Source of the DNA: Candidatus Velamenicoccus archaeovorus
GTDB taxonomy: Bacteria; Omnitrophota; Gorgyraeia; Velamenicoccales; Velamenicoccaceae
Direction of reading: 5' to 3'
DNA: 32,000 bases
Assembly: GCF_004102945.1 (NCBI RefSeq)
Contig: NZ_CP019384.1
Location: 1,530,001-1,562,000 of the forward strand
The position numbers were made by a program, and so were the translations under genes. The notes under the pieces are model-generated. The model was not told the DNA's origin. It ran no database searches and saw only the letters and a program-made list of their open reading frames with translations. Shown here in pieces: positions 5,796 to 26,148 of the stretch (position 1 is the stretch's first letter; each line of letters opens with the position of its first letter).

Positions 5796-6252
5796 TAATT
5801 TTGCCTATAACCGGGTATTAATTCCTTACAAAATTAGGCCCTCCGCTTACTTGGTATTACCTGGCTCAATCGGATGAGCCAGTATGCCGTCCAGCGGGAC
5901 GCACCCGCTTATCCTATTAAAGCGGGGTGCAGCTTTCTGCGGCATGCGGAGGCCTACCCTTTCTGGGTTAACTCCGCACTTACTCGATCTGCTGAAACAG
6001 CAGACCAGGAAAATTTACGCCGGATGGCCGTCCTGGCCGGCTGCGCCCAGGCCGACGGCCTACCCTGGCGGAAATTTTCAAGCGCCCAAGTGCGGAGTCA
6101 ACGTTTATTCCTTAACTTTGCCTATAATGAGGTATTTTTCCCTGCAAAGTTAACTCCGAGCCTGCGAAAGAAATTTCACGCCGGTCTACCCTGGCGTGAA
6201 ATTTACGAGCGTCGAGGCGAGGAGTAACGCTTATTCCTTAATTTTGCCTGTA
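5796..6252 (-). repeat. mosaic hairpin-repeat block (P, S, H modules) upstream of nrdR
   Basis: P boxes lie at 5795-5836, 6112-6153 and (degenerate) 6231-6252. S hairpins are CTGGCTC/GAGCCAG 5861-5882 and CCCGCTT/AAGCGGG 5904-5925. H hairpins are 5970-6098 (arms AACTCCGCACTT/AAGTGCGGAGT) and 6152-6225 (inner stem AAATTTCACGCC/GGCGTGAAATTT). The region is homologous to 20198-20690 and 22125-22370. Confidence 0.85.
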
Positions 6253-6271
6253 GCGAGAAATCGCTTCGCTC

Positions 6272-6387
6272 CAAAAAACAAAAATGAACGGGTTGGCGGG
6301 TTGACGGGTAAGCGGGTTAGCGAATCGAGAACTAAAACAAGCTTTTCTCTTTTAACCCGTGCACCCGTTTACGCATGCACCCGCTTA
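6272..6387 (-). terminator. probable intrinsic terminator of the glyA-comEB unit, built from periodic 8-mers
   Basis: Read on the minus strand just after the comEB stop, four ACGGGT-type 8-mers (6386->6355) face four ACCCG-type 8-mers (6320->6289). These are followed by TTCATTTTTGTTTTTT (6288->6273). Confidence 0.45.
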
Positions 6388-6846: not shown

Positions 6847-8123
6847 AATGCTCCCTTGAATTTCTTCAATAATGGTTGATACAACGGAAATTTCCTGATC
6901 AGGGCCTCTACCTTTTTGGCTGCGGCGGCGACCGCCTCTTCCTGGCCTCGGGCCGAGATCACCTCAAAAATCATGGCGGCGATCTGGCGCATTTCACGCA
7001 GGCCCATGCCCCTGGTCGTGACAGCCGGCGTCCCCAGCCGCAGGCCGCTCGTCTGAAACGGGCTTCTTTTATCAAAAGGAATCAGGTTCTTGTTGACGGT
7101 GATGCGCGCGGCATCCAGCATGGCCGCCGCTTCTTTTCCGGAAAGGTCCTTGCTGGTCAGATCGACCAAGAGAAGATGGTTGTCCGTTCCGCCGGAGACG
7201 ATCCTGAGGCCCTTCTGGGCCAGCTCATCCGCCAGGCCTTTGGCATTCACGACGATCTTCTGCTGGTATTTCTTGAACTCCGGGCCCAGGGCCTCTTTCA
7301 AGGCAACGGCCTTTCCTGCGATCACATGCATCAACGGCCCGCCCTGGGTGCCGGGAAAAACGATGCTGTCGATCTTTTTGGCAAAATCCTTGCGGCAGAG
7401 GATCATGCCGCCCCGCGGGCCGCGTAAAGTTTTATGCGTCGTGGTCGTCACGAATTCCGCATAAGAAACGGGCGACGGATGCAGGCCGGCGGCGACGAGG
7501 CCGGCGATATGGGCCATGTCCACAAAAAGATAAGCGCCGACGGAATCCGCGATCTCGCGGAACCTCTTGAAATCGATGATGCGGGGATATGCCGAAGCCC
7601 CCGCCAGGATCATGCGCGGCTTATGGCGCAAGGCGAGGTCCGCCACCTCGTCGTAATCGATCGTCTCTGTCTTGGGGCTGACGCCGTAAGAAACGATCTT
7701 ATAAAACATGCCGGAAAAATTATGGCTCAAACCGTGCGACAAGTGGCCGCCGCAGGCCAAATCCATCGCCAAAACCGTATCGCCGGGATTGATCGCCGCC
7801 ATATAAACGGCCATGTTCGCCTGTGTCCCCGAATGCGGCTGGACATTGGCGTGGTCGGCGCCGAACAGTTGTTTGGCGCGTTCGCGCGCCAGGTCTTCGA
7901 CGCCGTCGACATGCTCGCAACCGCCGTACCAGCGGGCCTTGGGATATCCTTCGGCATACTTGTTGGTCAAGACAGACCCCTGGGCCTCCAGGACGGCCAT
8001 GGAGGTAAAATTCTCGCTGGCGATGAGCTCGATATTGCGATGCTGGCGATAGAGTTCTCGCGCAATCATCTTGTAGACTTCCGGATCGACGTCTTTCAAA
8101 GAACTGGCTATGGTCGGACGCAT
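6843..8123 (-). CDS. glyA: serine hydroxymethyltransferase
   Basis: 426 aa. [22 protein letters not shown] and [14 protein letters not shown] (PLP lysine). Confidence 0.97.
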
Positions 8124-8674: not shown

Positions 8675-9732
8675 AGCAAAGCTCCTAATTTTTGGACGGC
8701 ATTCTTGATCGTTGAAAAACAATCCGCATAAAACCCTTCGGACTTGCCGATAGGATCCTCTATCTCCGCCTCGAAAGGTTCCAGACCGATATACTCGCCC
8801 AAAAGATGGATCCTTCCGGCCTCGGAAGGAAACTGCCTCATGAGCTCCTCCTGGTGCCGGCGCTCCATGGTCAGGATGATATCGGACTGACGCACCAGCT
8901 CGTCGGTAACGCGCCGAGCCCTGTGTTCGGAGGCATCGAGGCCGATGCCGTGGATCAGTTTGGCCGTCTCGTGCGTCGGCAACATCCCCAAGAACGCAAA
9001 CGTCCCCGCAGAGATGACATCCACGTCCTTGCGGCCGTGGTCAACAAGATACTTCTTCAAAAGATATTCGGCCATCACCGACCGGCAGGAATTCCCCGTG
9101 CAGACAAAAAGCACCGTTTTCTTGGAAGCCTCCTGCAGGACAGCGTCTGCCGGCAGGATCCCCTCCCGCAAGATCGCGGCAGGAAGCCTGCAAAGATCTG
9201 CAACCGTCGATTCACGGCCTAGTTCGGTCGTGCCGCCGTCCAGGACAAGATCGACCAGGCCCTCCAGGCCGGCCAAAACACCTGCGGCATCACGGGGGGC
9301 CGGCTGGCCCGCCCTGTTTGCCGACGGAGCAACAACAGGAAAATCCACGCTGCCCAACAAAGCCAGCGCAATGGCATTCTTCGGCATCCTCAGACCCACG
9401 GTCTTATCATGCGGGGCGCACAAAACAAGGGTCAGCGGCCCAGGCCAAAAACGCACCATCAGCTTGCAGGCCCGCGGTGAAACATCGACAGCATACTTCT
9501 CAACATCGTTCCTGTCGGATATATGGATGGTGAATGGTTTATCCTGAGGCCGCTCCTTGATTTTTTTAAGCCTTCCCATCGCCCCTTTATGCAGAAGGTT
9601 GGCCCCGATGCCGTAAACCGTCTCTGTCGGGAAAACGACAAGACCGCCCCTCTCGAGGACGGCAGCCGCCTCCTGGATCACGAGGGGCTCGATGTGAAGC
9701 GGATCGATTTTGCAAACTTTAGTGTTCGTCAA
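8671..9732 (-). CDS. fusion protein: L-threonylcarbamoyladenylate synthase (TsaC/YwlC) + low-molecular-weight protein phosphatase (YwlE/LMW-PTP type)
   Basis: 353 aa. The N-terminal ~200 aa carry GGLVVFPTETVYGIGANLL...SANRAGQP (YrdC/TsaC fold). The C-terminal ~150 aa carry VLFVCTGNSCRSVMAEYL (the CX5R(S/T) P-loop of LMW phosphatases) and a DPIG motif. The start is TTG 9732, overlapping the purE stop as TTGA. Confidence 0.8.
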   Translation of the reverse strand: MTNTKVCKIDPLHIEPLVIQEAAAVLERGGLVVFPTETVYGIGANLLHKGAMGRLKKIKERPQDKPFTIHISDRNDVEKYAVDVSPRACKLMVRFWPGPLTLVLCAPHDKTVGLRMPKNAIALALLGSVDFPVVAPSANRAGQPAPRDAAGVLAGLEGLVDLVLDGGTTELGRESTVADLCRLPAAILREGILPADAVLQEASKKTVLFVCTGNSCRSVMAEYLLKKYLVDHGRKDVDVISAGTFAFLGMLPTHETAKLIHGIGLDASEHRARRVTDELVRQSDIILTMERRHQEELMRQFPSEAGRIHLLGEYIGLEPFEAEIEDPIGKSEGFYADCFSTIKNAVQKLGALL

Positions 9733-11604: not shown

Positions 11605-12615
11605 TCACACAACGGCGACGCCGCCGACGCCGCTGACGATCTCGCCGATGATGGCGGCTTTGACGCCATGCCTGGAAAATGCCCGCACGATATCCATTTT
11701 GACCGCGTCCCGCACAACAGCGATCATGCCGATACCCATATTGAACGTCCGGAACATCTCTTTCTCGTCGATCTTACCCAAATGCTGCAATTCTTCAAAG
11801 ATCGGAGAACGCACCCAGGCGTTCTTGTAAATGATCATCGTCATCTTGGAAGGCACGGCCCGGCCGGCCTTGTCATAAAACGCGCCGCCGGTGATATGGG
11901 CCAGGGCCTTGATGTTGCAGGACGAAGAATTAAAAGCTTTCAAGACGGACAAAACCGGCTTGACATAGATACGCGTGGGCTTGAGGAATTCCTGCGCGCG
12001 CGCGCGCAATTCCAGGGGCGTGAAGGCTTTGCGCACGAGCGAAAAACCGTTGGAATGCAACCCGGAAGACTCCAGGCCGATCACGGCATCCCCCAGGACG
12101 ACGCGCGGGCTGCCGAGAATATTCTTCCTCTCGACGATACCGACACAAAATCCAGCGAGGTCATAATCTCCCGACTTATACATCCCCGGCATCTCCGCAG
12201 TCTCGCCGCCCACAAGGGCGCAATGGGCCTGACGGCACCCCTCGGCGATACCGCGCACGACGTCTTTCAGGACACCGGGCTCGATCTTGCCCGTCGCAAT
12301 ATAATCCAGAAAAAACAAGGGTTCCGCCCCGCTGCACAAAACGTCATTGACACTCATGGCTACCAGGTCGATACCGACGGTATGATGGATCCGGGCGGCG
12401 ATGGCGATCTTAAGCTTCGTGCCGACGCCGTCGCAGGAAGAGACAAGCACGGGATCCTTGTATTTGGTCTTCGCCAAATCAAAAAACGCCCCGAACCCGC
12501 CGATCCCCCCCATGACCTCCCGCCGCTGGCTTTTTTGGACCAACCCCTTGATGCCATCCACAAAAAGGTTGGCCTTATCGATATCCACACCCGCTCGTTT
12601 ATAATTCAGGCTCAT
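11605..12615 (-). CDS. purM: phosphoribosylformylglycinamidine cyclo-ligase (AIR synthetase)
   Basis: 336 aa. YKRAGVDIDKAN..., GGFGAFF, DGVGTKLK and GGETAEMPG. Confidence 0.95.
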   Translation of the reverse strand: MSLNYKRAGVDIDKANLFVDGIKGLVQKSQRREVMGGIGGFGAFFDLAKTKYKDPVLVSSCDGVGTKLKIAIAARIHHTVGIDLVAMSVNDVLCSGAEPLFFLDYIATGKIEPGVLKDVVRGIAEGCRQAHCALVGGETAEMPGMYKSGDYDLAGFCVGIVERKNILGSPRVVLGDAVIGLESSGLHSNGFSLVRKAFTPLELRARAQEFLKPTRIYVKPVLSVLKAFNSSSCNIKALAHITGGAFYDKAGRAVPSKMTMIIYKNAWVRSPIFEELQHLGKIDEKEMFRTFNMGIGMIAVVRDAVKMDIVRAFSRHGVKAAIIGEIVSGVGGVAVV

Positions 12616-14829: not shown

Positions 14830-14841
14830 AATAGGAGCCAA

Positions 14842-14978
14842 TCACCAATAACCAGGATACAATCATCAAAAAAATTCCAAACACCAATAACCAATCTTCC
14901 AAAAGCCATCTCTTTGATTATTGAAATTTGGTTATTGGTCATTGTTTGATTATTGTAGCTTGGAAGTTGGTTATTATG
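14842..14978 (-). promoter_or_regulatory. AT-rich structured spacer upstream of purQ with four CCAATAACCA-type boxes (candidate attenuator)
   Basis: Direct copies are CACCAATAACCAgg 14843-14856 and CACCAATAACCAat 14882-14895. Inverted copies are TTGGTTATTGGT 14928-14939 and TTGGTTATTA 14967-14976. A T7 run on the minus strand (14877->14871) follows one alternative hairpin. Confidence 0.45.
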
Positions 14979-15671
14979 TTACAGTCTGTGATAAAACTTG
15001 TTGATGATATGGACCACATCTTCGGGTTTGTCGACCAGGGAAAAAAGGCTCAGGTCGCTCTCGCCAATGCAGCCGCGGCGCAGCATCACGGACATGATCC
15101 AATGCAGTAATCCCCGCCAGTAGCGCCCGCCGACCAAAATGACGGGAAACTGCGGGATGCGCCCCGTCTGGATGAGGTTCACGGACTCAAACAACTCGTC
15201 CATGGTCCCGTATCCTCCCGGAAAGATGACGAATGCCTTGGCGTAACGCACGAACATCACCTTGCGCACAAAGAAATAATGGAACTCCAAAAGCGTATTG
15301 ATATAAGGATTGGCCTTTTGTTCCGTCGGAATATAGATATTGAGGCCGATGGAGGCGCTGCCGGCGCGCGAGGCGCCCTTATTGGCAGCCTCCATGATGC
15401 TGGGGCCCCCGCCGGAAATAATCTCATAGCCCGCCCTGCCCAACAGATACGCCGTCTTCTCCGCAAGCTTATAGTATTCATCCTTCGGCGTCAATCGCGA
15501 AGACCCAAAGATCGAAACCGCATTCCTGAATTTTGAAAGGGCGCGAAAACCCCTGTCAAACTCTTTAGCAATGCGCTGCACCCGCGCGCGATCGCCTTCC
15601 TCGAATTCATCGATCCGCATATGGAAATTGATGGCCTCTGTTTTTGATCTATGTTTTCCTGTCTTGTTCAT
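14979..15671 (-). CDS. LOG / TIGR00730-family nucleotide 5'-monophosphate nucleosidase-like protein
   Basis: 230 aa. SIFGSSR, GGGPSIMEAANKGA and the LOG signature PGGYGTMDELFE. It starts 4 nt after the purL stop. Confidence 0.85.
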   Translation of the reverse strand: MNKTGKHRSKTEAINFHMRIDEFEEGDRARVQRIAKEFDRGFRALSKFRNAVSIFGSSRLTPKDEYYKLAEKTAYLLGRAGYEIISGGGPSIMEAANKGASRAGSASIGLNIYIPTEQKANPYINTLLEFHYFFVRKVMFVRYAKAFVIFPGGYGTMDELFESVNLIQTGRIPQFPVILVGGRYWRGLLHWIMSVMLRRGCIGESDLSLFSLVDKPEDVVHIINKFYHRL

Positions 15672-15675
15672 GGGA

Positions 15676-18591
15676 TCAAACGGATTTCAAAGGCTCCTGC
15701 CAGGCCGCTTTCAGAGAAACCACGGGAGTTTCTACGCACCCTTCACCCTTGAGCCCGAAAATCTTCAAGACCGGATGTTCGGTGACACAGCCGGCCAGAC
15801 GAAAGATAGAACCCTTGAGGGCGCGCTCAAAGACCTTGCCGTGCTGACGCTCGACTTCAACGATAAAACGCGAGTGGGACTCGGAAAAAAGAATGGAATC
15901 GTTGCGCTTCTGACGGCCGCTCCAAACAACGTCGCTCAAGAAAAGATTTGCGCCCAGGCCGCCGGCCAGGCACATCTCCGCCAACGCAACGCCCAGGCCG
16001 CCTTCGGAGCAGTCATGGATGGAACACACGAACCCCTTGGCCGAGGCCGCCGCCAGACGGTGCATGAGCCTGCGCGCCCCGGCAAAATCGACCACGGGCA
16101 CCTGGCCGCCCCTGGCCTTGATCCGCTCGTAATAATGCGAACCGCCGAGCTCCGGCCGCGTCTCTCCGACGACATAAATCAGGTTTCCTGGCGTCTTGAG
16201 ATCCATCGTGACACAGCGGCCGACATCGGCCATGACGCCTATCGCCGAAATCAAGAGCGTCCCGGGGATCGCGATGGTCCTTTTGCCATGCGTGAATTCA
16301 TTGTAAAAACTGTCCTTGCCGGAGATGAATGGAACGCCGAAGGCCTTGGCCGCGTCATAACATCCGTAGGCGGCGCGCACAAGGGCGCCCAGCCGGTCCG
16401 GCTTATCGGGATTCCCCCAGCAGAAATTATCCAGGATCGCCACTTCATCGAGGGGGCATCCGACGGCCACTAACTGCCGCAAGGCCTCATCGATGCATCC
16501 GGCCGCCATCCAGTAAGGATCCAGGTCGCCATATTTAAAATTAATGCCGTTGGAAACTGCAAATCCGCGCAGAGAATCGAAACGCGGTTTAATGACACAG
16601 GCATCCGACGGCCCGTCATTGGCGGCGCCGACGAGGGGTTTGACCACCGTACCGCCCTGCACCTCGTGGTCATACTGACGGATGACCCATTCCTTGGAGG
16701 CGATATTGGGCATGGACAAAAGCCCCAGCAAATCCTGTGTAAGGTCTTTTTTGGGACGGCGCGCTTTCTCTTTGATGCGCGGCGCCTGCCAGGAGGCGCG
16801 TTTGGTCGTGCGCGGCAGGCCATCGTGCACGAAGGCCATGTCCAGATCGCATACCTTGTGTCCGTCATAGAAAAGCTCAAGCCGGCCTGAATCCGTGAAT
16901 TCCCCGATAACGGTCGCCTCCACATCCTGCCGGCGGAAGAGATCGACGAGCCTCTCGACCTTGTCTTTGGCGACAGCCAAAACCATCCGCTCCTGGGCCT
17001 CGGAGATCCATATCTCGGTATAACTCAACCCGTGATACTTCAAAGGCACTTTCTCCAGCATGACGCGCGCCCCGCACTCCGCGCCCATCTCCCCAATGGC
17101 GCTGGACAAGCCGCCGGCGCCGCAATCCGTAATCGCCTCATAAAGCCCTTCATCACGCGCCAGAAGGAGAACATCGAGCACCTTCTTTTCGGTGATCGCA
17201 TTGCCGATCTGGACAGCCCCGGAAGACAGGCTTTCGGACTCGTGCGTCAGCTCGCCCGAGGAGAATGTTGCGCCGTGGATGCCGTCACGGCCGGTCCTGC
17301 CGCCGACGACAACGATCACCTCGCCGGCAGAGACCTTCTTGAAAGATCTGTCTTTAGGCAGGATGCCGACTGTCCCGCAATACACCAGAGGATTGCCGAC
17401 AAAACGCTCGTCAAAAAGGACCGCGCCGTTGGCCGTCGGAATCCCCATCCTGTTGCCGTAATCCCGGACACCGCTGACCACGCCTTTCATGACGCGGCGG
17501 GGAGCCAAAGCCCCCTGAGGAAGCTTTTGTGCCGGATAATCCAGGGGCCCGAAACAGAAAACGTCAGTGTTCAAAATGGGCTTGGCCCCCAGACCCGTCC
17601 CGAGGGGATCGCGGATGACGCCGCCGATACCGGTGTTAGCGCCTCCATATGGCTCCAAGGCCGAGGGATGATTGTGGGTCTCGACCTTGAAACAAAGATT
17701 GAAGCGGTCGTCAAAACGGATGACACCGGAGTTGTCCTTAAAAACAGAAACACAATAGGGCTTTTTGAGCTGCTGCGTCGCCTTCACGATCGTCTCTTTG
17801 AGAAGGTTCGGGATGACACGGCTGCCGATCTTCCTGACATGGCAGGAACCGCTCGCCTTCTCGCGGTAATCGATCCGGCCGCGGAACGTCTTGTGGACGC
17901 AATGCTCCGACCAAGTCTGCGCCAGGGTCTCGAGCTCGCAGTCCGTGGGATTGCGCTTGAGCAAACGGAAATGGCGCTGGATCGCGCGCATCTCCTCGAT
18001 ATTAAGATAAAGCTGGCCCGTGCGGCTCAAGCGCTCCAGTTCCTTATCGCAAAGATCCACGATATCGACGATCTTAAGGGAAAACGCATAATCGGGGATA
18101 TTCGAAAAATCGCGCAGGCTGTGCTGGTCTTCCGGCAGAACGGATTGGATCAATTTATTGTAGAGGAGCTTCTCGGCTATGGACATGAGGTCCCGGCGGC
18201 CCACCGTCCCTTTGAAAAAATACCTCTTGGCCGTGCGGACGGCATTCACGCTTGAGATCCCCAGATCACGGATACCCCTCAACGTGGATTCTTCCACGGG
18301 CTCCATGACGCCGGGATTATAAATAATCTGCAAAGGGGTATATCCTGCGGGGGTCAAAGGGGTCTGGTCCTGCGCATAGACCTCGAAATCCTCAATGACC
18401 TGGTCGGTCAGGAGCTCTGCGGCGATGCGCCGGGCTTCCGTCTCTGTCGGCGACCCGACGAGAAAATAGATGTGGTGGAGACGGACGTCTGTGACGCCTT
18501 GATACCCGAGGTGGGCGATATCCGCCAGAAGGCCTTCACAGAAACCGCTGAAAACCCCCTCTTTTTCCTTGATTTCTACGCGCCAGTACAT
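15676..18591 (-). CDS. purL: phosphoribosylformylglycinamidine synthase, PurS-PurL fusion
   Basis: 971 aa. The first ~85 aa resemble PurS (MYWRVEIKEKEGV...DVRLHHIYFL...EDFEV). The rest is FGAM synthase II (HCVHKTF, ETHNHPSALEPYGGA, DCGAGGLSSA, DCSEGGLGVA). Confidence 0.9.
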   Translation of the reverse strand: MYWRVEIKEKEGVFSGFCEGLLADIAHLGYQGVTDVRLHHIYFLVGSPTETEARRIAAELLTDQVIEDFEVYAQDQTPLTPAGYTPLQIIYNPGVMEPVEESTLRGIRDLGISSVNAVRTAKRYFFKGTVGRRDLMSIAEKLLYNKLIQSVLPEDQHSLRDFSNIPDYAFSLKIVDIVDLCDKELERLSRTGQLYLNIEEMRAIQRHFRLLKRNPTDCELETLAQTWSEHCVHKTFRGRIDYREKASGSCHVRKIGSRVIPNLLKETIVKATQQLKKPYCVSVFKDNSGVIRFDDRFNLCFKVETHNHPSALEPYGGANTGIGGVIRDPLGTGLGAKPILNTDVFCFGPLDYPAQKLPQGALAPRRVMKGVVSGVRDYGNRMGIPTANGAVLFDERFVGNPLVYCGTVGILPKDRSFKKVSAGEVIVVVGGRTGRDGIHGATFSSGELTHESESLSSGAVQIGNAITEKKVLDVLLLARDEGLYEAITDCGAGGLSSAIGEMGAECGARVMLEKVPLKYHGLSYTEIWISEAQERMVLAVAKDKVERLVDLFRRQDVEATVIGEFTDSGRLELFYDGHKVCDLDMAFVHDGLPRTTKRASWQAPRIKEKARRPKKDLTQDLLGLLSMPNIASKEWVIRQYDHEVQGGTVVKPLVGAANDGPSDACVIKPRFDSLRGFAVSNGINFKYGDLDPYWMAAGCIDEALRQLVAVGCPLDEVAILDNFCWGNPDKPDRLGALVRAAYGCYDAAKAFGVPFISGKDSFYNEFTHGKRTIAIPGTLLISAIGVMADVGRCVTMDLKTPGNLIYVVGETRPELGGSHYYERIKARGGQVPVVDFAGARRLMHRLAAASAKGFVCSIHDCSEGGLGVALAEMCLAGGLGANLFLSDVVWSGRQKRNDSILFSESHSRFIVEVERQHGKVFERALKGSIFRLAGCVTEHPVLKIFGLKGEGCVETPVVSLKAAWQEPLKSV

Positions 18592-18629
18592 TGTGGAAGG
18601 ACCTTTTTTTCGAGAAAAACGGAAGATTT

Positions 18630-18658
18630 ACTATAGCAGAAAAAACGACAAAAATCAA
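18630..18658 (-). promoter_or_regulatory. extended -10 promoter of the purL operon
   Basis: The minus strand reads TTGATT (18658->18653), a 17-nt spacer ending cTGc, then TATAGT (18635->18630), about 40 nt upstream of ATG 18591. It is nearly identical in layout to the promoter at 20700-20728. Confidence 0.55.
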
Positions 18659-18904
18659 TCCTGTCAGAGACGCCGTTTCGCCCTAACATATGGCCAACGC
18701 TATAAGCGGGTTCCGAACAATCTGAAAAAAATTGAATTTCTTGGCGAGGCCTGTCTCTAACGGGGCCAACGCAGGCGCAACGGTCCTCCGAAGGCCATCC
18801 CCTGTTTCCATCCGAACTTTTCGTGTGGAATACCGGTCAAAACAACCGGCGCACACAAGAATGTACTCTCAAACAGAGACAAAAACGGTAGACCATCCGG
18901 CCTG

Positions 18905-20197
18905 TCACAAACCCAGGTTCTTGAAGATCCTGTTGATGTGCCGCAGATAATACCTGATGTCGAAGCACGCTTCGATCTCACCGGTGCTCAGGTGACGCTT
19001 GACCTTCGGATCGCTCAATAGGACGCCCTTAAAATCCCTGTTGAGCGAACGCGACGTAAACGCATTCTTCTGGACGATATCGTAAGCCACCGGCCGGCTC
19101 AGGCCTTTTTTCATCAACGCCAGAAGCACGCACTGGGAATAGATCAGACCGTTGGTCCGCCCCAGATTGACGAGCATGTTCTTAGGATACACATCGAGCC
19201 CCTCAGCCACCTCGATAAAAAGATTGAGGACATAGTCCAAGGCGATCGTCGAATCCGGCAGGACCACGCGCTCCACCGACGAATGGCTGATGTCGCGCTC
19301 ATGCCACAGGGCGATATTCTCAAGGCCGGCCATGGCATTGGCGCGCAGGAGGCGGCTCAAACCGCAAATCCGCTCGCAGATGACGGGGTTACGCTTGTGC
19401 GGCATGGCCGAAGACCCTTTCTGGTGTTTACCGAACGGCTCCTCGGCTTCCTGGACCTCGGTGCGGCTCAGATGCCGGATCTCGATGGCAAACTTCTCCA
19501 GAGAAGATCCTGTCATCGCCACGCTCATGAGGCAGGCGGCATGACGGTCGCGCGGGACAACCTGCGTGGAGCCGTAAGAAACCCCGAGGCCCAGTTTGGA
19601 ACAGACATATTCTTCGACCTCGGGTTCGATGTTGGAATACGTACCGATGGTCCCCGAAAGCTTGCCGACGGCAATGCCGTGCTGCGTGGCCCGTAGCCGT
19701 TCGAGATTCCTCTTCATCTCGTCGTGCCAGAGGGCTACTTTAAGACCGAAGGTCGTCGGTTCGGCGTGCACGCCGTGCGTCCGGCCGATGCAGGGGGTCT
19801 CTTTATATTTTTTGGCTGTTTTCGCCAGGATCGGCAGCAATCTCTCCACGTCTTCGATAAGGATATTAAAAGCATCCCGCATCTGCAGGGCCAGGGTCGT
19901 ATCCAACACATCGTTGGATGTCAGCCCCATGTGGATATATTTGGCGTCCGTCCCGAGACTCTCGGAAAGGTTATTGACAAAGGCGACGACATCATGCTTG
20001 GTCTTCTCTTCGATCTCCTTGATCTTCTGGATGTCGATCTTGGCCTTGGCCTTGATGGCAGCGATGGACTTTTTGGGAATGCGCCCCAGCTTTTGCCAAG
20101 CTTCGCACACACAGAGCTCGACAGCCAGCATGATATCGAACTTGTGTTCTTCGCTCCACACCTTGGCCATCTTCGGCAGACAATAGCGTTCGATCAT
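18905..20197 (-). CDS. purB: adenylosuccinate lyase
   Basis: 430 aa. MIERY..P.M...WSEE.K, HMGLTSNDV, and GSSAMPHKRNP (the fumarate-lyase signature). Confidence 0.95.
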   Translation of the reverse strand: MIERYCLPKMAKVWSEEHKFDIMLAVELCVCEAWQKLGRIPKKSIAAIKAKAKIDIQKIKEIEEKTKHDVVAFVNNLSESLGTDAKYIHMGLTSNDVLDTTLALQMRDAFNILIEDVERLLPILAKTAKKYKETPCIGRTHGVHAEPTTFGLKVALWHDEMKRNLERLRATQHGIAVGKLSGTIGTYSNIEPEVEEYVCSKLGLGVSYGSTQVVPRDRHAACLMSVAMTGSSLEKFAIEIRHLSRTEVQEAEEPFGKHQKGSSAMPHKRNPVICERICGLSRLLRANAMAGLENIALWHERDISHSSVERVVLPDSTIALDYVLNLFIEVAEGLDVYPKNMLVNLGRTNGLIYSQCVLLALMKKGLSRPVAYDIVQKNAFTSRSLNRDFKGVLLSDPKVKRHLSTGEIEACFDIRYYLRHINRIFKNLGL

Positions 20198-20690
20198 GCG
20201 TCACCTCTTAATTTTGTCTATAACAGAGTTTCTATCCCTTGCAAAATTAACTCCAAGCCTGCGAGAGAAATTTTACACCGGCCCACCCTGGTGGAAAATT
20301 TCCGAGCGCTTAGGCGAGGAGTAACGTCTATTCCTTGATTTTGCCTATAACAGGGTAACTTTTCCTTACACCTGGCCCTATCGGAAAGGGCCAGTACGCC
20401 GCTTTCTGCGGCGCAAAATCAACCCCGAGTCTGCGAAGAAAATTTTTGCCGACCCATCCTGGCAAAAATTTTCAAGCGTTTAGGCAAGGGGTAAACGCTT
20501 ATTCCTTAATTTTGTCTATAACAGGGTTTCTATCCCTTGCAAAATTAACTCCGAGCCTGCGAGAGAAATTTTACACCGGGTGGCGAAGCCCCCCTGGTGG
20601 AAAATTTCCGAGCGCTTAGGCGAGGAGTAACGTTTATTCCTTCTTTTGCCTATAACCAGGCATTTATTTCTCTCAAAATCAATTCTCTTA
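20198..20690 (-). repeat. 3.5 tandem mosaic hairpin-repeat units forming the purB 5' leader
   Basis: Units lie at about 20204-20328, 20329-20498, 20499-20633 and 20634-20690 (degenerate). P stems are 20208-20217/20241-20250, 20335-20344/20413-20422 and 20506-20515/20539-20548. H hairpins are 20249-20322, 20421-20492 and 20547-20628. Confidence 0.9.
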
Positions 20691-20699
20691 ACGGGGCTT

Positions 20700-20728
20700 A
20701 CTATAGCAGAGTTCAGGACAAGAGTCAA
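20700..20728 (-). promoter_or_regulatory. extended -10 promoter upstream of the purB repeat leader
   Basis: The minus strand reads TTGACT (20728->20723), the 17-nt spacer cttgtcctgaactcTGc, then TATAGT (20705->20700). Confidence 0.55.
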
Positions 20729-20760
20729 TCCCATTAGGGACCTTCGTTGCAAAAAACTAT

Positions 20761-20786
20761 AAAAAAAGATGCCGCTGGGGGCATCT
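20761..20786 (-). terminator. Rho-independent terminator after the 111-aa membrane protein gene
   Basis: The minus strand reads AGATGCC-cccagc-GGCATCT followed by TTTTTT(T). Confidence 0.75.
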
Positions 20787-20828
20787 GTCTATAAACAAAC
20801 TTAAGTATATGTAAAATAATAATTTACA

Positions 20829-22124: not shown

Positions 22125-22370
22125 GCGTCTCCTTGATTTTGCCTATAACAAGGTTTCTATTCCTTGCACCTGGCCCTATCGGAAAGGGCCGCACCTTGCC
22201 TCATTGGACTGGCAAGTGCGCCACCTTCTGTGGCGGTGCGCCGCTTTCTGCGGCGCAAAATCAACTCCGGGCCTGCGAAAAAAGTTTTTGCGGACTGGCC
22301 AGCTTCGCTGGCCGAGTCCTGGCAAAAATTTTCAAGCGCCCGCCACCACTGCTTAGGCGGACCCGCCGAT
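22125..22370 (-). repeat. mosaic hairpin-repeat unit (expanded P/S + H) between the cupin gene and the EamA gene
   Basis: P stem TTGATTTTGC 22133-22142 pairs with GCAAAATCAA 22255-22264 and encloses four GC hairpins (22171-22190, 22191-22219, 22218-22238, 22238-22256). The H module from 22263 has an apical GGCCAGC-ttc-GCTGGCC insertion (22297-22313). Confidence 0.85.
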
Positions 22371-25959: not shown

Positions 25960-25987
25960 TTGCCAACCCCCCGGTCTTTGATATAAT
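25960..25987 (+). promoter_or_regulatory. extended -10 promoter of the gcv operon
   Basis: TTGCCA (25960-25965), a 16-nt spacer ending tTGa, then TATAAT (25982-25987). Confidence 0.55.
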
Positions 25988-26064
25988 ACAGATACAACTT
26001 GGTAACAAAAGCTTCTGGCGACATGGAATCAACCATGAGGAAGCGTATTTGAAAGAAAATCGTG

Positions 26065-26093
26065 AGCCTGGGTTTTCGTAACCAGGCTTTTTT
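26065..26093 (+). terminator. intrinsic terminator inside the gcvT 5' leader (attenuator candidate)
   Basis: AGCCTGG (26065-26071) pairs with CCAGGCT (26082-26088). The stem is extendable to CCTGGGTT/AACCAGG and is followed by the run TTTTTT ATT. It lies 55 nt upstream of ATG 26149. Confidence 0.6.
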
Positions 26094-26096
26094 ATT

Positions 26097-26137
26097 GCCG
26101 CAGAAAGCGGCGCACTGGCCCATCCAATTGGGCCAGG
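26097..26137 (+). repeat. S-module hairpins of the mosaic repeat family, plus-strand copy in the gcvT leader
   Basis: GCCGC-agaaa-GCGGC (26097-26111) and CTGGCCC-atccaatt-GGGCCAG (26115-26136). This is the reverse complement of the arrangement at 20372-20413 and 22171-22256. Confidence 0.8.
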
Positions 26138-26148
26138 TGTAAATAACC

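Follow-up and report, generated by a model that had tools for sequence, protein, structure and literature searches.

The leader of purB in Candidatus Velamenicoccus archaeovorus raises the question of whether a long tandem array of hairpins in front of a purine gene acts as a regulatory RNA of that gene or is present for another reason. We analysed a 32,000-nt stretch of contig NZ_CP019384.1 (hereafter the window, with coordinates counted from its first letter), in which the 495 nt leading on the minus strand from a promoter-like site at 20728-20700 to the purB ATG at 20197 consist of two alternating modules, designated P and H. A long structured tandem leader of this kind mimics a new riboswitch, but comparative data show an interspersed repeat. 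On balance, the purB array is probably one locus of a new family of small, interspersed hairpin repeats of modular build, which is restricted to one lineage and whose copies are co-transcribed with genes. As the repeat is abundant, varies between strains and lies upstream of many unrelated gene starts, we conclude from sequence comparison that the array is not a purB-specific regulatory RNA.

Two alternating modules upstream of purB

In the direction of purB, minus-strand positions 20208-20682 follow the order P1-H1-P2-H2-P3-H3-P4 (Table 1). The P module is about 45 nt long, with the consensus TTRATTTTG-(Y)AAGGAA...CC..TTATAGGCAAAATYAA and inverted arms of 9-10 bp, and H is a long palindrome that covers 71-81 nt in the purB array and has outer ACTCC/GGAGT pairs, two short GC helices and an A/T helix of 9-13 bp. 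Each internal P copy leads through GGAATAA-CGTT into H, and the last copy, P4, is followed by GAGGTGA-CGC-ATG. A first-pass annotation of the window had described tandem copies of a hairpin unit between the promoter and the purB ATG, and two sub-motifs searched with up to 3 mismatches do occur 7 and 5 times, on the minus strand only, against 0.02 and 0.00 expected. The two-module units that it proposed are also recovered, but they are unequal: H1-P2 and H3-P4 are 97% identical, while H2-P3 is nearer to the copy upstream of the EamA gene (88-92%). Two stem lengths had to be adjusted. The A/T inner stem, noted as 12 bp, is a perfect 13-bp helix in H2 (20438-20450/20461-20473), and the P stem, noted as 10 bp, has 9 bp plus a U.G pair or a mismatch in P2 and P4. 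Tandem Repeats Finder did not report the purB array, because its units vary by indels and inserts, and repeat-pair and profile searches were needed.

The 511-nt purB leader stretch beats its shuffles in folding on both strands (z -4.5 and -6.9), as palindromic DNA is expected to do. Covariation, named at the outset as a way to check the modules, is evident in both of them: compensatory substitutions maintain the P and the H hairpins. In the P stem 94.8% of the aligned cells are paired, compared with 37-57% when the partner is slid, and pair 6:47 appears as AU (14), GC (11) and CG (4). For H, 97.3% of the cells in an alignment of 15 copies are paired (29-60% in slid controls), two-sided changes occur in 6 of the 17 pairs, and all 21 distinct copies fold to the same multi-helix hairpin at -18 to -50 kcal/mol. 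Thus, the pairing is selected, be it as RNA or as DNA. On the sense strand, G.U pairs outnumber A.C-type mismatches (10 vs 4 in H; 20 U.G at pair 13:40 of the P stem). The comparison of sense and antisense folding energies was tried as a strand test as well and is not decisive. Besides, the P loop is near-invariant in AAGGAA and TTATAGG.

The array is placed between a terminator and promoter on one side and the purB Shine-Dalgarno sequence (SD) on the other. The extended -10 promoter picked out in the first-pass annotation, TTGACT-17-TATAGT, is indeed the top-scoring promoter-like site in the region (10/12), and by its sequence likely drives purB; it is conserved in L005, L002, L004, L010, L131, L132 and L135 (L-numbers label genomes or loci of relatives), including relatives without the repeat. 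GAGGTGA is also found in relatives that lack P, so that this SD is native to purB. Lying between the likely promoter and the SD, the array is therefore physically a leader. In agreement with the earlier view that no credible open reading frame (ORF) is present, no ORF of at least 80 aa was found on the purB strand of the leader. A conserved small ORF through H was considered and rejected: in L001 a TTG opens a frame of 29 codons, but in the window copies the frame ends after a few codons. The array had also not been recognised as a described riboswitch or a CRISPR, and the searches agree on both. The Rfam search gave no match at the gathering score in the whole window, and at E up to 10 the best scores within 20150-20800 were 11-20 bits, which is noise. 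The array has two alternating repeat types with spacings of 127, 171 and 134 nt and no unique spacers, and the CRISPR-DR model in the Rfam search gave only a 12-bit noise match.

Placement and turnover of the modules

When a 22-nt P pattern was run against one genome per species, matches were confined to two metagenome-assembled genomes titled 'uncultured Planctomycetia', and both were matched at two sites, the orthologous purB leader (a single P-H-P) and a P-H-P between pheS and pheT. A looser P pattern was applied to metagenome contigs; about two thirds of the loci listed were chance matches, and a P profile (nhmmer) then sorted at least about 35 true loci from them. Of the PurB and PheS homologues with a named source, nearly all are assigned to Candidatus Omnitrophota. 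Viral contigs gave a single match, by chance, inside a phage coding region. In the sequences searched, the family is confined to a narrow clade of PVC / Candidatus Omnitrophota-like bacteria. Its carriers include the metagenome-assembled genomes CAYYFL01 and CAZAYJ01 and the Ga0172367/Ga0172375 bins.

Across this family P keeps its size of about 45 nt, H ranges from 62 to 105 nt, and nested GC hairpins are optional. In the gene direction the grammar is [P]-GGAATAA-CGTT-H-(optional small hairpins)-P-SD-start, and H-arm profiles place the modules of one site always on the same strand and in the same order. Random orientation and placement had initially been said to favour purely selfish DNA; none of the 63 P-profile matches listed is in the opposite orientation; in 22 of them H comes next, and in the other 41 a start codon on the same strand lies at -1 to +31 nt. 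All of the 41 gene-proximal P copies listed lie immediately upstream of an ORF, co-oriented with it, and carry the ribosome-binding site (RBS) and sometimes the ATG. In the usual layout, GGCAAAATYAAGGAG-N5-9-ATG, AAGGAG sits at the foot of P. The ATG is supplied by the very end of P (GGCAAAATTAATG) in nrdR, pheT and MTHFS, and lies inside a P arm in hflX. Leaderless starts were considered for the former three genes, where the A of the ATG is 9 nt after TATAGG; the idea is possible, not compelling. Alternatively, a weak SD could be provided by the AGG of the P loop, and AAGGCAAAGTTAATG is retained in L137 without the rest of P. In that relative (12300-12330), which has no detectable P or H, AAAAGGCAAAGTTAATG precedes the MTHFS gene and corresponds to the 3' end of P only, being either the remnant of a lost P or a hint that this end came from a native 5' region.

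The genes downstream of P, at least about 20, are unrelated. By NCBIfam they include purB, nrdR and the genes for ClpP (clpP), EF-Ts (tsf), S6 (rpsF), S18 (rpsR), L25 (rplY), MTHFS, CbiN (cbiN), HflX (hflX) and MiaA (miaA), while infC, rpmI, pheT and the PFOR subunits, one of which is preceded by P, were assigned by sequence and by Pfam on orthologues; an EamA transporter gene and several membrane protein genes also belong here. Most sites lie between co-directional genes and occupy the whole spacer from the stop codon to the SD, also within operons (pheST, infC-rpmI, cbiMN and four PFOR subunit genes). Canonical promoters are found upstream wherever they are needed, as at 20728-20700 in the window, at 1340-1312 in L004 (a solo P) and at 765-793 in L018 (a divergent region). 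At infC of L120 (about 195-215) the start codon is ATT, preceded by P and GGAGG, and another H-P unit lies between infC and rpmI. ATT is an unusual start codon known for IF3. Between the PFOR subunit genes of L018 (1100-1146 and 1880-1916) variant P-like hairpins keep the frame, TTAATCTCGCC-GGA-GGCGAGATTAA, with other interiors, and lead directly into GGAGG and the start codon; therefore, an architecture of 'TTAAT-stem-loop-ATTAA plus SD' may exceed the P sequence family.

The purB leader itself changes among close relatives whose PurB is about 98% identical where full length, and whose four-fold sites in purB have an identity of 0.88 (window vs L005) or 0.77 (window vs L002), i.e. 12-23% of sites differing. 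Three H units are present in the window, one in L005/L022/L008, L002/L090 and L004, and P alone in L064. In L010, L131, L132 and L135 (78-83% PurB identity) the terminator and the promoter are kept with a leader of 45-230 nt and no P or H, and neither module occurs in about 50 kb from relatives at this level of identity. The window has a filled EamA site, whereas the site is empty in L010, L131, L135 and L005; in L005 the two genes are 22 nt apart. In the cbiM-cbiN spacer, L044 and L026 have only P, L105 and L016 have H+P, and a GGGTTGA direct repeat flanks the H indel. At the pheS-pheT junction, L143 is empty, L001, L003 and L054 have P-H-P, and L139 has an unrelated hairpin family; throughout a syntenic 13-20-kb region, the pheS-pheT, infC-rpmI and nifU-MTHFS junctions are empty, filled with P/H or filled with other hairpins depending on the lineage. 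Orthologous sites are thus found both filled and empty at EamA, cbiM-cbiN, pheS-pheT, infC-rpmI and nifU-MTHFS, and the number of H units per site is 3, 1 or 0 at purB and 0-2 at other loci.

The P copies themselves indicate how the number changes. Those flanking one H resemble each other more than they resemble orthologous P copies (100% identical in L004; likewise in L003 and L078). The purB leaders of L064 and L004 differ by exactly one H+P unit, with the whole P duplicated around H, and the window differs from L005 by two H-P units, 97% identical to each other, both of which directly follow an older P on its 3' side. As far as these alleles go, the turnover pattern is that of an interspersed, recombining repeat, unlike that of a conserved sensor RNA. 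The early suggestion of a REP/MITE-like hairpin family therefore holds up, with many unrelated genes preceded, a number that varies in near-identical strains, and absence from farther relatives that keep the promoter.

At cbiM, the H insertion in L016 (about 2330-2300), compared with L044 (about 6890-6905), replaces the last cbiM codons, and CbiM of L016 ends four residues later, at a TAA inside H. In L044, L026 and L105 the cbiM stop TGA lies in GGGTTGA; in the first two, which have only P, this sequence forms its left arm, and in L105 it stands directly before the inserted H.

Readings of the array

The canonical upstream promoters, the poor promoter features of P and the covariation of its arms together favour co-transcription of the elements with their genes, and any action would then be at the RNA level. 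P would form a 9-10-bp stem-loop with a 3' foot that leaves free the SD, or the AUG itself where there is no SD, and may protect or insulate the downstream cistron as a 5'-proximal hairpin. H, as a predicted imperfect duplex of about 30 bp, would be suited as an RNase III-type processing site or as a 3' stabiliser for the upstream cistron. Arrays may gain and lose H+P units by recombination at P, through unequal exchange or through H-P integration at P. A model of integron attC-like cassettes, with GTTRRRY-like flanks and P as the att site, was rejected, as there is no integrase and no consistent core site; the attC likeness is kept as an analogy for a possible P-targeted insertion. The effect of the three units at purB probably does not go beyond a tuning of mRNA stability or translation, and nothing suggests purine sensing by the leader.

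Several points weigh against a family of co-transcribed repeats. Co-transcription, processing and effects on expression are inferred. The antisense fold of H is 2.3 kcal/mol more stable on average (17 of 21 copies), so that H may instead act at the DNA level. The P loop (TTATAGGCAAAAT, AAGGAA) is far more conserved than a mere hairpin requires, which suggests sequence-specific recognition. About 9 of the 20 listed downstream genes are translation-related (S6, S18, L25, L35, IF3, EF-Ts, PheT, HflX and MiaA); this share looks as if it exceeds chance (about 5-8% by our own estimate, from a small and incomplete sample) and hints at a role beyond that of tolerated selfish DNA. There is no clean or consistent short target-site duplication, with GGGTTGA directly repeated on both sides of one H indel, and no transposase or other mobilising gene was found in about 0.3 Mb. 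Searches by tblastn with IS200 TnpA and CsrA queries, a weak test on so limited an amount of DNA, returned nothing in 314 kb; no insertion sequence turned up in the loci examined.

Tentatively, and as a less probable alternative, P could be, rather than just tolerated selfish DNA, a clade-wide cis-acting expression signal, in which the invariant loop and the two SD-like AAGGA motifs would be recognised by some factor, coordinating housekeeping and translation genes. The factor might be an RNA-binding regulator, a nuclease or the ribosome itself, and a portable hairpin-plus-SD cassette would spread to new genes and enter operons without polar effects.

The first-pass annotation had also offered a stack of terminator-promoter cassettes. 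We consider it unlikely that the units are insulated cassettes of the REP2 type, in which P would be a promoter (TTGYAA ... TGnTATAGG) with an RBS and sometimes the ATG, and H, or a G hairpin with its TAATTTTG tract, a terminator; each unit would end and then restart transcription, and internal units would yield short hairpin RNAs. P has -35-like and extended -10-like boxes, of which CTGTTATAGG resembles the real TGnTATAGT promoters of the lineage, three genes start at the end of P without an SD, as near-leaderless transcripts would, and a precedent exists in REP2 and the Borrelia IR elements (PMC3184786). However, the spacing from TTGYAA to TATAGG varies (13-16 nt), and the last base of the -10-like hexamer is a near-invariant G, in place of the T that closes bona fide promoters of this DNA. 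In P, the promoter scan found no credible promoter; its lone overlap, a 9/12 match at 20220-20193, has its second hexamer over the purB ATG. A T-rich tract follows the hairpins that precede P, and one such site was called at 20438-20423, but the terminator-like calls inside the array are small sub-hairpins only (for example 20438-20423 followed by TTGATTTTGC), and the TAATTTTG tract is weak beside real terminators such as the one at 20786-20767 with its seven T. Moreover, canonical promoters are already upstream where required, elements lie between subunit genes of one enzyme and within the pheST and infC-rpmI operons, and the covariation of the P arms needs both arms in one molecule, whereas a transcript starting inside P would not carry both. 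The cassette reading is weakened by these observations.

Quite unlikely, too, is a post-transcriptional regulon in which a lineage-specific RNA-binding factor (CsrA-like AAGGA recognition, or ribosome-associated) would have P as its operator or enhancer, with co-regulation of translation-apparatus and housekeeping genes and with tandem units adding binding sites. Such a regulon would fit several observations: P has two invariant SD-like GGA motifs, AAGGAA in its loop and AAGGAG about 30 nt away at the foot, its loop sequence is conserved far past structural need, a large share of the downstream genes is translation-related, and orthologous P copies persist over species-level divergence. A conserved operator would, however, not be expected to come and go or to change in copy number in near-identical strains, and unrelated hairpin families fill the same junctions in sister lineages. 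Besides, the gene sample is small and partial, and no csrA was found in the 314 kb, in what was a weak test.

Very unlikely is that the three-unit array is an assembly artefact in which alleles of different strains were joined through the P repeats that they share. In relatives the purB leader has no more than one H, H1/H3 are like the L002 allele and H2-P3 like the L005 allele, and three Logan contigs (L006, L007 and L009) begin in the GC insert or in P. Against this, one locus-specific variant (TTATAGAC) is common to P2 and P4, the junction from P2 to H2 has only about 12 nt in common with any alternative path, too short for a k-mer mis-join, and two-H arrays exist in independent assemblies (the nrdR locus of the window, L083, L046 and L018). 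In these three short-read contigs of close relatives, the break in the GC insert or P upstream of purB falls within the first 110 nt; the repeats therefore fragment assemblies, and they may be of use as strain markers.

Finally, tandem sensory domains are known in other riboswitch classes and the array is highly structured and lies between the promoter and the purB SD, but a purB-specific cis-regulatory leader of tandem riboswitch-like aptamers or a purine-sensing attenuator, which had been among the first proposals, is hardly credible and is already contradicted by the comparisons, as Rfam gives no match at its gathering score or with E relaxed to 10, the same modules precede at least about 20 unrelated genes of no single pathway, and orthologous purB leaders do not conserve them, with one H or none at about 98% PurB identity and 45-230 nt without P or H at 78-83%.

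Known repeat families and other loci in the window

The comparison with known systems does not imply sequence membership of any known family, and the likeness to REP2 and BOX was drawn from descriptions. The REP elements of E. coli are about 35 nt long and GC-rich, alternate in orientation, usually lie 3' of genes and are linked to RAYT transposases; Higgins in 1982 and Stern in 1988 reportedly placed them in transcribed intergenic regions, with effects on mRNA stability. The family described here is like REP/BIME in its interspersed mosaic palindromes and intergenic clusters, including intercistronic operon spacers, and unlike it in its AT-rich stems and in that all modules are co-oriented with the gene and on its 5' side; RAYT was not found in the limited DNA searched (314 kb, with an IS200 TnpA query). 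Phage T7 has intercistronic RNase III sites, related hairpins with internal loops between the cistrons of polycistronic mRNA, which we propose as a functional analogy for H and its predicted cleavage, although H belongs to a chromosome-wide bacterial family with copy-number turnover.

Neisseria REP2 (120-150 bp, 23-26 copies) has been described as containing a promoter (PMC3184786). As in REP2 and in Borrelia IR-A/IR-B, a co-oriented repeat with stem-loop inverted repeats and an RBS or ATG stands right upstream of unrelated ORFs (PMC3184786); in contrast to REP2, P has about 45 nt and a doubtful promoter function, and alternates with a long hairpin in variable-number arrays that are mostly inside operons. 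The pneumococcal BOX element, boxA-boxB(n)-boxC, is predicted to fold as a transcript and thought to affect co-transcribed genes (PMC3049150). Its composite modular build, with an internal module number varying between strains (PMC3049150), is shared, whereas host phylum and sequence differ, BOX has distinct end modules A and C while P is both end and repeat unit, and BOX lacks the fixed distance to the start codon that P has. RNase III acts on Correia elements, which can also contain promoter boxes, and the effect of ERIC depends on its orientation (PMC3049150, PMC3184786). Correia (CREE/NEMIS) and ERIC/YPAL are likewise short, strain-polymorphic hairpin repeats co-transcribed with genes, as we infer here, but they have terminal inverted repeats, a TA target duplication and both orientations, and the present family shows no clean target duplication and no orientation variation.

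A literature search found nothing relevant, and we know of no earlier description of a repeat family from this uncultured lineage. It is unusually regular in its complete co-orientation, fixed RBS position, modular grammar and compensatory changes, and is suited to asking how small repeats enter operons and whether they become co-opted for mRNA processing or translation.

Table 1. Positions of the purB leader, its array and the further repeat loci of the window
Feature	Position	Strand	Basis or remark
Intrinsic terminator of upstream gene, GC stem then TTTTTTT	20767-20786	-	position conserved in relatives
Sigma70-type extended -10 promoter, TTGACT-17-TGcTATAGT (predicted)	20700-20728	-	10/12, TG present
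P1, degenerate P (TTGATTTTG...TTATAGGCAAAAGAA)	20641-20682	-	nhmmer E 7e-9
Junction GGAATAAACGTT before H1	20640-20629	-	sequence reading
H1, long imperfect hairpin ACTCC...GGAGT	20548-20628	-	minimum free energy (MFE) -38.6 kcal/mol
P2 (TTAATTTTGC...TTATAGACAAAATTAA)	20506-20548	-	P profile
H2, 13-bp perfect inner stem, apex CCAGGAUGGG	20422-20492	-	inverted-repeat search and folding
P3, interrupted by two-hairpin GC insert	20335-20422	-	sequence reading
GC insert of P3, GCGCCGCAGAAAGCGGCG / GGCCCTTTCCGATAGGGCC	about 20414-20371	-	sequence reading
H3	20250-20322	-	repeat comparison (with P4, vs H1-P2) and folding
P4, gene-proximal P, 3' foot adjoins purB SD	20208-20250	-	
purB RBS GAGGTGA, 3-nt spacer, ATG	20195-20207	-	sequence
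purB, adenylosuccinate lyase	18905-20197	-	TIGR00928, 527 bits
Second locus, upstream of nrdR	5796-6272	-	profile searches and sequence reading
Third locus, upstream of EamA-family gene	22133-22363	-	sequence reading
Two-hairpin GC sub-module alone, directly upstream of gcvT start	26097-26137	+	sequence reading

The modules had been reported to recur upstream of nrdR, the EamA gene and gcvT, and they do so at the first two (Table 1), while gcvT has only the GC sub-module. The nrdR locus reads partial P, H, P, H with an apex insert, a small hairpin, a G hairpin with nested inserts, and a terminal P that directly abuts the ATG. The EamA locus consists of an H with a degenerate left arm, the left part of P, nested GC hairpins and P, followed by AAGGAG-ACGC-ATG. 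The gcvT leader (25962-26148, plus strand) contains a TTGCCA-17-TATAAT promoter-like site and then a terminator-like hairpin with a T run (about 26067-26096); 3' of the latter, the two-hairpin GC sub-module adjoins the ATG, and Rfam gave no glycine riboswitch in this leader. Just 5' of the nrdR mosaic, downstream of a dCMP-deaminase-like gene, positions 6288-6383 hold degenerate 8/16-nt repeats (ACGGGTAAGCGGGTTG) and their complements, then a T run, and form a terminator-like region.

The promoter regions of purL and purB (18628-18671 vs 20698-20741) share 75% identity over 44 nt (TTGAYT-17-TGCTATAGTAA). The 313-nt spacer between purB and purL holds no P or H module, and PurL (15676-18591, 971 aa) carries an N-terminal PurS-like fusion that is also found in relatives. 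A second, unrelated long-hairpin family (AATAACCAA...CAATGACCAA...TTGGTTATTGGTGAT, MFE about -40 kcal/mol) occupies other intercistronic spacers. It lies upstream of a purQ-like gene in the window (14841-14985, minus strand) and occurs in relatives at L139 9677-9825, L005 12072-12155, L050 about 9436-9472 and L073 about 560-600. In L139 it is located between pheS and pheT, the same junction that holds P-H-P in L001, L003 and L054.

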